Source: a virus (taxonomy: Duplodnaviria; Heunggongvirae; Uroviricota; Caudoviricetes). Taken from it: 64,000 nucleotides of DNA. The position numbers and the translations under genes are program-made. The DNA is taken from positions 3,521-67,520 of IMG/VR virus record IMGVR_UViG_3300035517_000267. One strand, written 5' to 3'. The notes under the pieces were generated by a model. The model did no database searches and was not told the DNA's origin. It worked only from the letters and a program-made list of their open reading frames with translations. Each line of letters begins with the position of its first letter. Position 1 is the first letter of the stretch. This document shows, piece by piece, positions 49,769 to 56,738 of this stretch.

Positions 49769-50383
49769 TTAATCAATATTGTCCTGCGGCGACTCGCTAT
49801 GTCGCTCTCTTAGTCTTGTCCTAAAAGTACTTTCAGACATAACATTTTGTTCTCTAGCTAATGCTGTTGCGGTTTCCCCGTTAAGCCAACGTTGATAAAG
49901 TTCTTCAAAATTATCTGGCAAAGATTTTCTGGGGCGCCCGAACTTTACCCCTTTTAGGCGGGCTGCCGCGATTCCTTCAGCCTATCTCTATTTTATTGAA
50001 AGTCGTTCTTGCTCTGCCTAAAAAGAAAGTATTTGCAAAACTAAATCTGCGATAAAAGTGCCTAATATATCTTTGCAATTAGTAGTGTCGAGTAGTGGCA
50101 TATCTATTACTTTGACATCTGCTTCTTTAATCTTGGTAATAAGCTGCCACTACTCAAGGATTTCCGCGTAATTGCGTCCTAATCTATCAATGCTTTTTAT
50201 GATAATTAAATCATTAGGCTAAAGTTTATCTATCATTTGTTGATAAGATGGTCTGTCAAAAGTTGTGCCAGTCCATTTGTCAATAAAAATATTGGATTCT
50301 GTTACTCCTGATTCGATTAATGCTATTATCTATCTATCGAGATTCTAGTCACGAGTACTAACTCTTGCGTATCCATATATCAT
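49769..50383 (-). CDS. Small serine recombinase, resolvase/invertase family (204 aa, 7 TAG)
   Basis: [47 protein letters not shown] and C-terminal HTH-like segment. Confidence 0.9.
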
Positions 50384-50508
50384 GCTTTTTCGGATTTAAG
50401 AGCTTCAGCCTGTTCAGCCGTAAGACAGCCAAGTGCGACGAAACGTTCAAGCTGATCATCGCGAATATAGTTTTTAAGATAGCGTTCTCTTATTTTCTCG
50501 TAAGTCAC
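50380..50508 (-). CDS. XkdX-like small protein (42 aa)
   Basis: MTYEKIRERYLKNYIRDDQLERFVALGCLTAEQAEAL; overlaps both neighbours. Confidence 0.6.
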   Translation of the reverse strand: MTYEKIRERYLKNYIRDDQLERFVALGCLTAEQAEALKSEKA

Positions 50509-50813
50509 TGTTGTTGCACCTCCAAAGCAGAAATTTGTAAATCTGTTATTTCTTGTTCTTGTTCAATATTAGCAAGCTGTAAGTCAGTTATATCTTGCTA
50601 AATTAATTCTTCTGTTGAAAAAGTTTTTTCTGGCTCAATTATTTCGACCAAAGAAAAAGACTTGTTGGTAAAATCTACCACAAGTCTATAATTAGAATTA
50701 TCTTTTTCTGGTTTTGAAAGTTCTGTTCGATTAAATTCAAAATATTCTACGGCGTCAGAAGGCAAATCTTGAATTAAAGTTATTTGTCCATTTTTGTTTT
50801 TGCAAGCATACAT
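50505..50813 (-). CDS. Tail-fibre accessory/chaperone with C-terminal coiled coil (102 aa, 1 TAG)
   Basis: TAATG overlap with fibre A; QQDITDLQLANIEQEQEITDLQ heptads. Confidence 0.6.
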
Positions 50814-52550
50814 TAAGAAGTCACCTCCATTAAACCGTATATGTCAAATATTATTTCAGGAGAGTCTGTTATTAGTTGGGAATAAGCAGACTAAACTACG
50901 GGGGATGAGCTATTGCAAAATAAAAGTTTTCCATTCATCCATCTAACATAACAATTAGATTTATCGTCAGAAAATAAAATTTTGTAGCATAAATTTTGAG
51001 TTATAACTTTTAAGTCTGAAACTCTTATTAACCATTGTGCTGAATAATTGAGTCGAAGGGTTATATAAATAATATTGGGTTGCCATAAACGTTTGACGGT
51101 ATAACGACCAGTTAAACTACCCAAACTTGCTGTTGATTCGGCAGAAGTTTGTATAATAGTAGAAGTATTAAGATTTAACTTATTTATATAATTATTCATG
51201 TCAGAATAAATAATTATATTGTCATCTAAATTGCCCAAATAAGCTTTTATCTATAAAGAAGAATCTGTTATAAAAGTTATATTATTGCCAGTTGATAATT
51301 GCATTTTACAATAATTCATTAGAGTATTACTTGATTTATCTGGCAAATAAGAAAAATAAATTTCATCTCTATCATAGTCAACATAATATACGCTAGGCGT
51401 TGAATTATAGACATCCTCAAATATTACGTTCGATGAAGTTGTTCCGTTAAATATATCTATTTTAGAATAGTATATTTTGGAATCGTATGTAGTAAAATAA
51501 TATGCAATTCCATTATTAACAAAAAAAACTATTAGGAACAGACGTAGATTGAGAAGTATAATAATCTTTAAAAGAATTCTATGTTAATGTATCAAGCTAA
51601 TAACATAATACTCTATATTGGTAAGCGGAATTAGACGTTGTATAATTGTAATAAAATAGATACAAATAATTATTCTTTACTCCTGCATTGTATAGCAAAT
51701 CATAGACGCCGGATACTGAAAAACTAGCTGTTGCTCCAGTCTGTGGATTAAATAAATAGTATATGTTTGAGTAATAACAAATGCAAACATTTTCATCGCT
51801 ATTATTATAATCAATATTTACACTATAACTGCTGGGTATAGATAAATTCGTTTGACAAAGTAATTCTCCTGTAGTAGTATCATAAAAAGATTGAGTATTA
51901 TAAGAAATATAACCATAATATTTAGGAGTTTCTATATAACAATAAGAATTATTTGATGGAAGTAGAACAAAAGGTTTTGTCAAAGAAGGAACTCCTGTAT
52001 ATTTTTTTCCATCGTATTCTATATATCCACTACTAGACTTACTATCTAAATAAGTAGATAAATTACTCATAGTAACTTTCTTACCTGTGCTTGCACTAGT
52101 ATCTAATAGTCCTACATAGTCTCCATCTGCTATATCACTACTACCCAAGGCTGTAGAGCCATTTATCATTCCATAAAGGGCTTTAGGAGCAGAAGTTTGA
52201 CCAGTACCTCCTTGAGCCAGAGGAAGCGTTCCAAAAGATGCGGCTCCATTAGTGCTAGTCGCATATAAAGCGCCACTCTTTGTAGCCACTGTCTTTACAG
52301 CGCTAGTCCCATTGCCAGTTACCACAGCATTAGAAGTTAAAGTAGTTGCACCAGTTCCGCCACGAGCAACGTCTAGAGTACCAGATGTAATATCATCTGT
52401 GCTATGATTGTGACTTGCGGCAGCTGCTCCTAAACTCGTTAAAGCGCTAGAGGCTGTAGTAGCTCCTGTGCCGCCTTTTGATATGGGTAAGGTACCAGAT
52501 ATATTATCGGCGGTAGTAGACTAGCCTGTGAGAATACATTTCACGCTCAT
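50813..52550 (-). CDS. Tail fibre/receptor-binding protein A (~578 aa if one T is removed from a T8 run at 51521-51528)
   Basis: N-terminus paralogous to fibre B (MSVKCI.TGQ; GTLP.A.GGTG repeats); Tyr/Asn-rich C-terminus; as sequenced, TAA at 51516-51518 truncates it. Confidence 0.7.
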
Positions 52551-52558
52551 AAGTTGCG

Positions 52559-52744
52559 TCTCCTTTCAAAAAAGTACACTTTATAAAAGCCTTGGTCAAA
52601 ATTAAAAAAACTCCTTATTTTTATTTTTATTATTGGTGAAAGGGTAAGATACTCTATTGCGGGAAAAGGGTATCTTTACCTTTTTCCCAATTTTTTTATT
52701 ATACATTTTTTTACTGTAAAAAAGTGTACTTAATCGAAAGGAGA
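52559..52744. promoter_or_regulatory. Candidate invertible segment bounded by 24-bp inverted repeats (52559-52582 and 52721-52744)
   Basis: AAAGTGTACTT-nnnn-GAAAGGAGA precedes each divergent fibre gene; 20/24 identity. Confidence 0.55.
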
Positions 52745-52751
52745 ATTTAAC

Positions 52752-54599: not shown

Positions 54600-54612
54600 T
54601 TTTTTCGGGGTG

Positions 54613-54711
54613 GTTCTCGCAACTACAATAACTCGAACAATGTGTGCAATGTTAACACGAGTGGCGAAGCGAACAACAACAACTACAACAACAGCAATTA
54701 CCTCGCGCCCG
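54613..54711 (+). repeat. DGR template repeat (TR, 99 bp)
   Basis: 36 adenines, 14 AAY codons in the VR frame; ungapped alignment to VR. Confidence 0.95.
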
Positions 54712-54712
54712 A

Positions 54713-54778
54713 TTAGATAAACTTTCTCGCGTTGCGAGATGAGCGTTGAAAACGCGAAAACGAGCAACAATTATCTAA
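54713..54778 (+). ncRNA. Structured spacer RNA downstream of TR
   Basis: TTAGATAA/TTATCTAA closing stem enclosing TCTCGC-gtt-GCGAGA and CGTT-gaa-AACG hairpins. Confidence 0.55.
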
Positions 54779-54916
54779 GAAAAAACTCCAGAAATTATAA
54801 TTTGAATTAAGTTTATTTAAGGAGGCTTTTTACCATTCTTTATTTAAAGATAAAATATGAATGTAGATGTAAGACTCAAGAAGTTTTTACTATTACTACA
54901 TGATAAGGAGAAACTT

Positions 54917-56128
54917 ATGGAAAATTTAAGTTTCGAGCATTTTTGCAATTTTGATGCTTTATACAATGCTTCTTATAAAGTTTGCAGAAACGTTCGTTGG
55001 AAAGATAGCACGGCTAGTTTTGAAGAAAACAGAATTGAAATAATATTAGATATAGAAGAAAAACTTAAATCTAATAAATATGAACAACAAGTTTTTAGCT
55101 GCTTTTCAATAATTGAACGAGGTAAGCAACGTGATATAAGAGCTTGCCACATAAATGATAGATTGGTATAGAACGCTCTTTGTGAAGAAATTCTATTACC
55201 AGTTTTTACTCCGCATTTTATTTATGATAATTGTGCTACTTTAAAGAATAAAGGGATAGACTTTGCTTTAATGAGAGCAAAAAAACATCTGTAGGCTGCT
55301 CATAGAGAATATGGAGATTTTTTTGGTTTAAGAATAGATATTCGTAAATATTTTGATTCTATAAATCATGAAGCTTTGAAAAATTCAATAAGCAAACTAA
55401 TAAAAGATGAACAAATTCTAAAATTATGTTATGATTTAGTAGATACATTTTCTTTTAAAATAACAAAAGATATAGAACCGATTGCTAATAAAGACTATTT
55501 TATTATCAAGGAACACAAATATTCTTTAATTCATCCAGAGTCTTTTAAAAAAGATATTCAATATTTTGAATATGAAGAAAAAAGTCTCGGATTAGGTAGT
55601 CAAACATCATAGTTGTTCGCATTGTTGACATTGAACGAAATTGACCATTTTGTCAAAGAAAAATTACATATTAAATATTATGGTCGCTATATGGATGATA
55701 TATATCTTTTACATGGTGACAAAAAATATTTAGACAAATGTAAAATAGAAATAGAAAAGAAACTTGCGGAAATAGGTCTTAGTTTAAATTAGAAAAAGAC
55801 TGTAATTTCAAAAGTTCCTACACATGGTAAAAATGGAGTTCCCTTTAAATACCTTAAATGGAATTTTTATTTAACTGAAACAAATCATATTATTTAGCTT
55901 CCTTTCAGAGAAAAAATTAAAAAATAGCGTAAAAAATTGCGGAAGTTACATTCTTTATTTTTAGAGGGTAAGACAACCGAAGAAGATATTATGCTATCTT
56001 ATTTAGGATGGCGAGCGCACATTCAGAAAGGAACTTGTTTTTATATAATCCAAAATATGGATAATTATTTTCGTTCACTGTTCAAAGGAGTATTTAAACA
56101 TGAAATATCTTTTACTCAATAGAAATAA
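54917..56128 (+). CDS. DGR reverse transcriptase (403 aa, 7 TAG)
   Basis: RGKQRDI, DRLVQNAL, NKGIDFAL, IDIRKYFDSINH, GLGSQTSQLFA, YGRYMDD motifs; AAGGAG RBS; an upstream in-frame ATG at 54857 is possible. Confidence 0.93.
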
Positions 56129-56738
56129 CATCTTAGTAGATATACTAGATGAAGTTAGATATATTAAATTGCAATCCGCCAGCGGCATATCTATTGGTTG
56201 TGCGGAAACTGAAGGTACTGGAGTCGTAGGATCAGATTGTGATACCCACTATACTTTAATAAAGGCTGACATAGCTTCTTCTCCCGATGCGGTTCGTGTC
56301 ATAGAAGTAGAAACTCTTCCTGAAAATATAGAAGTTGGTCTTTATAAACTAGACTTAGAAACCAATGAATTGGTTTATCGTTATTCTTTGGAAGAAGTCA
56401 AAGAACAAAAACAAGCAAAAAATAAAGAAATTTTTGCAGATTATCTTTCCAAGCATCCTTTAACTTGGATAGACGGAAAGGTCTATGGCATCACAGAAGA
56501 AGATTAGAATGAAATTAGTCTTAATATAGCTAGATATCAGATCGAAGGAACAACCTTGGAATGGCACGCCAAAAAGGAAGAAAGCGTTCCTTGGACAATC
56601 GAGGATTTGACTGCTCTTAGTCAAGCCATTTCCGCACAAGTATATCCTATATATCACTTGATGCAACAATATAAAACTCAAATCTATAATGCAACTTCTA
56701 TTGAAGAAGTAAATGCAATAGAATTAGTTTATAACTAA
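56100..56738 (+). CDS. Tail fibre assembly protein, C-terminal DUF4376-like (212 aa, 1 TAG)
   Basis: Fragments 56100 and 56556 in frame; WTIEDLTAL...ATSIEEVNAI C-terminus. Confidence 0.65.

Follow-up and report, generated by a model that had tools for sequence, protein, structure and literature searches.

A candidate site-specific inversion switch between a cassette-type and a retroelement-diversified tail-fibre operon in a phage genome

Introduction

Changes in phage host range are usually ascribed to mutation, to mutagenesis by diversity-generating retroelements (DGRs), or to the swapping of tail-fibre tips as in phage Mu. At the G segment of Mu (Gin), the C segment of P1 (Cin), and in e14 (Pin) and p15B (Min), a phage serine invertase encoded beside the tail-fibre genes inverts a 3–4 kb coding segment, bringing alternative C-terminal fibre parts and their chaperones onto a constant N-terminal part. 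In the Hin/hix system of Salmonella the inverted segment is regulatory: ~1 kb long and containing hin itself, it carries a promoter that turns one operon on or off, it is bounded by inverted dyad sites with an asymmetric 2 bp center, and its orientation, set by a small serine recombinase, decides which surface protein is made. The cwpV and flgB switches of C. difficile and the Bacteroides invertons are shorter (~150–200 bp) non-coding elements bounded by imperfect inverted repeats; these are chromosomal, control one downstream operon each, and are mostly served by tyrosine recombinases (RecV) or by Mpi. At cwpV, expression is set by an orientation-dependent intrinsic terminator in the leader. 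The subject here is a segment of ~135 bp (positions 52583–52717) in a 64,000 nt stretch of phage DNA (the window), corresponding to bases 3521–67520 of the 131.5 kb virus record IMGVR_UViG_3300035517_000267 in IMG/VR, which has direct terminal repeats. The segment separates two divergent tail-fibre operons, one of them equipped with a DGR, and is quite likely a site-specific invertible switch, run by a serine recombinase of the phage itself, that redirects transcription between the two.

The window has a GC content of 35%, and long reading frames are recovered throughout it once TAG is read as an amino acid. At one aligned position the first fibre gene (fibre A) has TAG where the second (fibre B) has CAA by direct reading, which fits TAG = Gln; gene calls at the locus were made under this assignment. 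The genome is virulent-looking: a profile search of it for tyrosine recombinases (PF00589) gave no match, i.e., no integrase.

Two divergent fibre genes and their inverted repeats

A first-pass annotation, made from the sequence alone, had proposed that two fibre genes with homologous N-termini diverge from a 201 bp intergenic region. This is borne out: fibre A on the minus strand and fibre B on the plus strand both begin MSVKCI.TGQ, and they are ~54% identical over their first 164–191 residues (tblastn). The spacer holds no called open reading frame (ORF), and both fibre genes lie wholly outside the two arms of an inverted repeat within it. The central features are as follows (RBS, ribosome-binding site; VR, variable repeat of the DGR):

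51516–52550, minus strand: fibre A as called, 344 aa, cassette-type; weak PHROG tail-fibre matches
52559–52589, no strand: left arm, candidate crossover site; dyad core 52568–52582 (AAAAAAGT-AC-ACTTT) with central AC at 52576–52577
52583–52717, plus strand: candidate invertible interior, non-coding; holds TTGGTCAA, a hairpin around GTAAGATAC, and a terminator-like hairpin
52661–52698, plus strand: intrinsic-terminator-like hairpin with a 12 bp stem and T-run, from terminator scans; reads toward fibre B
52714–52744, no strand: right arm, candidate crossover site; core 52718–52731 (AAAAAAGT-GT-ACTT) with central GT at 52726–52727
52752–54065, plus strand: fibre B, 437 aa, DGR target; PF19789 (DUF6273) on the C-terminal part, VR core at 53950–54051

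The annotation had also described a 24 bp element in inverted orientation before each gene (52559–52582 and 52721–52744), identical at 20 of 24 positions. Inverted copies they are, but the count is 21/24, and the repeat can be extended to 31 nt with 25 identities (52559–52589 against 52714–52744). Of this repeat, the conserved part is a 14–16 bp dyad that leaves the RBS outside, AAAAAGT-AC-ACTTT in the left arm and the inverse with a central GT in the right; this core is invariant across the 23 distinct segment sequences discussed below. A dyad with an asymmetric 2 bp center is the architecture of serine recombinase crossover sites.

The 11-mer core occurs in the window only twice, once per arm, and a search of the whole 131.5 kb genome allowing one mismatch likewise returned the two arms only. 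The possibility that it is a repeated regulatory motif was rejected, the core being unique to the arms. As a short motif alone it is not statistically remarkable (three or more matches in 30 of 100 shuffles, with one mismatch allowed); its weight comes from its position and conservation. A near copy of the arm core (AAAATACACTT) was seen in a related contig (L005:5820–5830), where it is given by the opening codons (K-C-I-L) of the DGR fibre and has the orientation of the neighboring arm. This is probably chance, though a relic or secondary site could also look like this.

The annotation had cautioned that nine of its 20 matching bases belong to the RBS, and that duplication of the genes might by itself have produced the repeat. 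The relatives speak against this: their left arms lie 25–37 nt from the start of the left gene and their right arms ~125 nt from the RBS of the right gene, and the sequences outside the arms are asymmetric. With the arms this distant from the RBSs, the conserved repeat excludes them; arms abutting the RBSs are a feature of this genome only.

Natural inversion in related contigs

Relatives were found first by the recombinase protein, in viral contigs, and then by a pattern consisting of the arms and one interior block. The pattern search yielded seven viral contigs, 47 metagenomic contigs, and two copies binned into metagenome-assembled genomes (MAGs). One metagenomic hit (L069) was discarded as an unrelated chance match. 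With the window, the segment set comprises 56 contigs and 23 distinct segment sequences, and the proteins encoded next to the segment have diverged to 46–69% amino acid identity between genomes. Each copy was oriented by its interior, after which the outside flanks and flanking genes were compared, a check that the annotation had suggested.

Fifty-three of the 56 contigs are in the canonical orientation, in which the interior reads toward the DGR fibre (the window, the two MAG copies, and 50 further loci); two are cleanly flipped, and one is a chimera. In the first flipped copy (L036, a 148 kb contig) the interior is reversed between flanks identical to those of canonical L055 and L049 (44/44 and 300/300 in a 300 nt flank comparison, and 400/400 over a 400 nt flank on the DGR side), and the segment matches the reverse complement of the canonical L055/L049 segment at 169 of 169 positions. 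The second (L039, 3.3 kb, with >1.2 kb on each side) is reversed relative to canonical L041, with flanks 98% and 95% identical and 170 of 171 interior positions matching. These are two independent inversions, in two segment sequence types. The chimera (L046) has its left flank at both ends of the segment, the second time as a reverse copy, and so combines the canonical and flipped junctions of one flank in a single sample. In the relatives the exchange point maps within the 14 bp core. With a core below the k-mer length of assemblers, the flipped junctions should be present in the reads; the core would also be too short for efficient homologous recombination.

Two further observations concern the contigs themselves. 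L039 and L067 come from one sample and were considered as possible heterogeneity within a strain, but the strains differ, with flanks only 49–58% identical; the canonical counterpart of L039 is L041, which belongs to a different sample. L029, L036, and L046, two of them >140 kb, all end 43–44 nt past the segment, which suggests that mixed orientations in those samples made the assembly graph branch.

Could the region nonetheless be static? The dyads would then be operators of divergent promoters, the repeat a by-product of duplication of the fibre starts, and the flipped contigs artifacts, with the recombinase employed elsewhere, for example in resolving genome multimers. Dyad-symmetric sites near promoters are typical operators, and the starts of the two fibre genes are indeed paralogous, but duplication does not account for arms that in relatives lie far from the RBS with asymmetric sequence outside them. 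That 53 of 56 contigs share one orientation would suit a fixed arrangement; two clean inversions in different lineages, with break points inside a core below assembler k-mer length and, for L039, >1.2 kb of flank on both sides, would not. The best solved relatives of the enzyme are resolvases, as this explanation might lead one to expect, but the core search (up to one mismatch) found no second site pair in the genome, and in particular none in the direct orientation needed for resolution. A static region seems very improbable on this evidence.

The serine recombinase and its operon

The minus-strand genes, read from right to left, are fibre A, an open frame at 50813–51583, a 102 aa ORF, an XkdX-family ORF, the recombinase, and a holin:

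50813–51583, minus strand: open frame of 256 codons, stop to stop, including a “177 aa chaperone” of the annotation; no family match
50505–50813, minus strand: 102 aa ORF of the fibre-A operon, called with TAG as Gln; no Pfam, NCBIfam, or PHROG match
50380–50508, minus strand: XkdX-family ORF, 42 aa; PF09693 at 28.3 bits (cut-off 23.5)
49769–50383, minus strand: small serine recombinase and candidate invertase, 204 aa, seven in-frame TAG codons; PF00239 at 3.7e-27
49334–49723, minus strand: holin, directly downstream of the recombinase on the same strand; phrog_13712, E 2e-33

The annotation had predicted a serine recombinase of Hin/Gin type. The first part of this stands: the PF00239 match spans residues 2–146, the catalytic motifs GYARVS and DRLGRN align to those of Sin and the gamma-delta resolvase, and the protein falls in PHROG 125, “DNA invertase” (1.3e-49). 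The subtype does not. Among solved structures, Sin/Bin3 (2.2e-29) and the gamma-delta/Tn3 resolvases (~1e-24 to 1e-25) are its best relatives, whereas Gin is a weaker one (2.7e-18, over residues 1–166 only), and the NCBIfam Mpi model gives 54 bits, below its cut-off of 272. Small serine recombinases are typically ~180–210 aa long and end in a helix-turn-helix DNA-binding domain. The alignment of the 204 aa protein to Sin reaches residue 190 and covers the region of the Sin C-terminal domain; Pfam recognizes no separate helix-turn-helix family in the protein. From its sequence it is best classed as a small serine recombinase, presumably acting as an invertase, outside the Hin/Gin subfamily.

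Coupling of this gene to the fibre-A operon, also proposed earlier, is seen at three junctions, where stop and start codons overlap as TAATG, GTGA, and ATGA; at the latter two, the XkdX start overlaps the preceding stop and the XkdX stop overlaps the recombinase start. Overlaps running from the junction at 50813 to the recombinase imply translational coupling to the fibre-A operon. With its seven TAG codons, the recombinase should be made only while TAG is decoded as Gln. In L005, the recombinase start is closely preceded by a perfect 12 nt inverted repeat (6192–6235; ATTGGCAATTTT and AAAATTGCCAAT, 20 nt apart), which may be an operator. Relatives keep a TATAAT-like block upstream of the holin RBS (interval 49724–49768 in the window), and the holin may have its own promoter.

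This recombinase is the sole PF00239 match in the genome. It lies 2.2 kb from the switch in the window and 0.1–2.8 kb from it in relatives, and it is found beside the switch in every contig that reaches far enough, whichever fibre cassette intervenes. Linkage and site architecture connect enzyme and sites indirectly, and some invertases, Mpi and RecV among them, serve several loci in trans. The inversions might accordingly be the work of a host recombinase, or a neutral by-product, with the phage enzyme unrelated to them. Constant linkage across many cassettes is not what this would predict, nor is strong purifying selection on arms and interior, and dyads with an asymmetric 2 bp center are of the serine recombinase crossover type. 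We regard a host enzyme or a neutral origin as improbable.

The two fibres and the retroelement

On the plus strand, fibre B is followed by an Avd-like gene, the template repeat (TR) and reverse transcriptase (RT) of the DGR, and a DUF4376 protein:

54141–54599, plus strand: Avd-like gene, 152 aa; position and size fit, and it adjoins the RT in relatives too
54613–54714, plus strand: DGR template repeat (core); 24 of 24 TR/VR mismatches at TR adenines
54857–56128, plus strand: DGR reverse transcriptase, 423 aa, seven TAG codons; PF00078 at 3.4e-18
56100–56738, plus strand: DUF4376 protein, 212 aa, final gene of the right operon; PF14301 and PHROG tail-fibre families
56743–56769: terminator after the DUF4376 gene, from the terminator scan

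The DGR had been recognized from the letters alone, and the comparison of TR (54613–54714) with VR (53950–54051) agrees: over the 102 nt core all 24 mismatches fall at TR adenines, and the RT and DUF4376 assignments are likewise supported by profile matches. Between the end of the VR and the fibre B stop codon lie 14 nt. The 152 aa Avd-like ORF, located between target gene and TR and conserved in relatives, gave no significant Pfam, NCBIfam, or PHROG match. Judging from these sequence features, the DGR is active-looking. Across the clade the right-hand fibre is conserved and DGR-linked, with 47 of 51 starting MPKCILAEQGGK.

The left slot is quite different. Among 42 complete genes there are at least 27 unrelated clusters, ranging from 32 to 722 aa, each beginning M(S.K/E/N)CIL(Q/T)(G/D)Q, a constant leader of 8–10 residues; this suggests frequent exchange of modules at a fixed junction. 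The cassettes can be seen in the left flanks of L025–L078 (e.g., L044, L056, L028, and L041). The M..CIL.GQ leader common to both fibres suggests, as far as sequence can, that they dock at one tail site. The L004/L005 lineage has lost the left fibre and kept the switch, with a MAVKC remnant upstream of the recombinase; there (L005:5837–6262, L004:1650–2100) an RBS and MAVKC start are fused in frame to an extended recombinase ORF of 229 aa.

In the window itself, the earlier description of the left operon requires some correction. Its XkdX-like gene is real, a 42 aa ORF that fills the gap before the recombinase, but its chaperone has no family match. The last part of fibre A overlaps the frame concerned (50813–51583) at a T8 tract (51521–51528); fibre A ends at a TAA just past this tract, and the next frame has a similar Tyr/Asn/Ser-rich composition. 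The “chaperone” is probably the frameshifted C-terminal part of fibre A, and with one base fewer at the T8 tract fibre A would be ~578 aa. The frameshift could represent a sequencing error, phase variation, or decay.

The host is hinted at only weakly. The MAG copies, L087 and L088, are on contigs of 68 and 148 kb labeled uncultured Clostridia and uncultured Eubacterium sp.; these contigs are probably phage genomes binned with their host, and the bins are a weak hint of a Clostridia-type gut bacterium, with which the strong GGAGG ribosome-binding sites agree. A blastn search of a collection of annotated phages with 49400–57300 gave no match.

Promoter, hairpin, and terminator in the segment

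The interior of the segment is conserved across diverged genomes, and TTGGTCAA (52592–52599) is invariant. In L055, promoter-like sites within 500 bp are found only inside the segment, near the left arm, and point toward the DGR fibre. The best of them (TTTACT-17-TATAAT) matches 10 of 12 consensus positions and is followed ~50 nt later, on the same strand, by a terminator with a 13 bp stem and a strong predicted fold (z = -5). In the window a single promoter candidate was flagged (52675–52702, 9/12), reading, as does the terminator (scanned at 52661–52688), toward fibre B; a simple consensus scan found no minus-strand candidate in the segment.

Two features of the interior suggest a structured leader RNA: G-U pairs in the terminator stem are confined to the strand directed toward fibre B, and a small hairpin around the invariant GTAAGATAC (52642–52654 in the window, 5456–5468 in L055) keeps its pairing through two double changes (GAGTA/TACTC vs. 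AGGTA/TACCT). This hairpin might serve as an antiterminator or bind a protein. None of the interior motifs recurs elsewhere in the genome, and a search of the spacer against Rfam gave sub-threshold chance matches only. A general late-promoter motif was also considered and rejected, as TGAAANNGTAAGATAC occurs only once in the genome, no more often than its control. A terminator in this position implies attenuation or a need for antitermination; with the candidate promoter and the terminator both internal, inversion could have an effect only by way of transcripts that run out of the segment.

A model for the switch

In the model that we consider likely, the recombinase would bind the two inverted 16 bp dyad sites with their asymmetric AC/GT centers, and strand exchange at the central dinucleotide would flip the intervening ~135 bp. 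The segment would be a one-directional cassette of promoter, short structured leader, and intrinsic terminator. In the canonical orientation, that of this genome and of 53 of the 56 contigs, transcription leaving the segment would enter the fibre-B/DGR operon, and in the flipped orientation the fibre-A/XkdX/recombinase operon. Having a common leader, the two fibres probably compete for one docking site on the tail, so that the switch would set the receptor-binding fibre of the progeny. With the recombinase gene in the fibre-A operon, the DGR-fibre orientation should make little recombinase and be a stable state. As a matter of logic, a near-absorbing canonical state fits the observed 53:2:1, and the opposite assignment predicts the reverse.

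A number of points weigh against this model. Inversion is known from relatives, and would only by extension occur in this exact genome; the flipped orientation accounts for just two of 56 contigs, which are not all independent, and in L036 the flipped junction is separated from the end of the contig by 44 nt. The skew might also reflect selection or sampling. Within the segment, the strong terminator stands between the candidate promoter and both exits, so that read-through or antitermination is needed, and at the aligned promoter position the window has a weak sequence (TTTATA-17-TAAAAA) that the scan did not flag. On the opposite strand TTGGTCAA reads as a good -35 (TTGACC), with a possible -10 (TACTTT) inside the arm; it could be the -35 of a second, leftward promoter, or an accessory site. 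The holin gene, which follows the recombinase on the minus strand, must escape the switch, and fibre A in this genome is interrupted at the T8 tract. Catalysis by this recombinase, promoter function, the role of the terminator, and mutual exclusivity of the fibres are all parts of the model that we infer.

Alternatively, the inversion might be real, but act only as a terminator/attenuator or on/off switch for the DGR fibre, in the manner of cwpV, while fibre A and the recombinase would be transcribed from a constant leftward promoter such as TTGACC + TACTTT. The effect of a flip would then be confined to the amount of transcription arriving at fibre B. The holin needs transcription in all states, no structure in the segment is better conserved than the strong one-directional terminator, and the L004/L005 lineage has retained the switch with a single fibre. 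The invariant TTGGTCAA is TTGACC when read on the other strand, but its distance from TACTTT varies between 15 and 17 nt and the simple scan gives no minus-strand promoter; for these reasons such a promoter was left out of the main model. Moreover, the sole consensus promoter and the terminator are co-oriented inside the segment and so would move together, and the common docking leader fits alternative better than simultaneous use of the two fibres. Control of the DGR fibre alone is on balance unlikely, though less so than either a static region or a host recombinase, and redirection of transcription between the two operons remains the preferred explanation.

More tentatively, and with rather less than even confidence, the locus may be one at which human-gut phages of a widespread, TAG-recoded clade vary their host recognition in three layers: cassette exchange on the left, DGR hypermutation on the right, and between them a self-biasing serine-invertase switch of promoter, leader, and terminator. 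In such a scheme the invertase would be transcribed from the minority orientation only, making the DGR-fibre state near-absorbing and the cassette-fibre state self-reverting, and through the structured leader and terminator, fibre expression would be tied to a late antitermination signal.

Comparison with known systems

The literature searched, coverage of which was incomplete, yielded bacterial invertons and coding inversions of the Mu/P1/PinQ type, and no description of a DGR target placed opposite a second fibre and governed by an invertible switch. Candidate viral invertons were reported in 2026, mainly a capsid case in Microviridae, and this arrangement is not among them (PMC13501310).

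The enzyme's best relatives, Sin, Bin3 of Tn552, and the gamma-delta/Tn3 resolvases, align with it along its full length, catalytic motifs included. They act on directly repeated res sites with accessory sub-sites and produce deletions, whereas the natural product here is an inversion between inverted sites. Enzymes of the Hin/Gin/Cin/Pin subfamily need a Fis-bound recombinational enhancer to invert DNA, and Clostridia-type gut bacteria are not known to have Fis; if the model holds, this would be a compact inversion module (~170 bp plus a 204 aa enzyme) of Sin-like lineage that may work without Fis.

The DGR resembles those of Bordetella phage BPP-1 (target Mtd) and other phages in its RT, Avd-like gene, adenine-specific TR/VR differences, and target in the receptor-binding C-terminal part of a tail fibre. 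If the switch works in this way, one phage population could hedge between fixed and exploratory receptor-binding strategies. A practical corollary would be that phage assemblies from metagenomes may be broken or variable at switches of this kind; with both orientations present in public assemblies, the system is directly testable.

With the cwpV, flgB, and Bacteroides elements the segment shares its small size, non-coding character, and imperfect inverted repeats, and with cwpV a one-directional terminator. It differs in belonging to a phage genome without an integrase and in lying between two divergent operons. Like Salmonella Hin/hix, it combines a small serine recombinase with a putative promoter-bearing segment between inverted dyads with an asymmetric 2 bp center, and its orientation is proposed to decide which surface protein is made; here, however, the recombinase gene is outside the ~135 bp non-coding segment, in one of the target operons, and the targets are two divergent phage fibre operons rather than one operon turned on or off. 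With Mu, P1, e14, and p15B it has in common a phage serine invertase beside tail-fibre genes. The contrast with Mu and P1 drawn in the first-pass annotation holds, in that the segment contains no coding sequence: inversion is limited to the regulatory spacer and leaves both complete fibre genes where they are. A lytic-looking gut phage thus appears to choose between two complete fibres by means of a bacterial-style invertible regulatory element. What appears to be new, and is well supported at the DNA level, is a Hin/inverton-type regulatory switch that would serve the Mu/P1 purpose of fibre choice and is linked to a DGR target.

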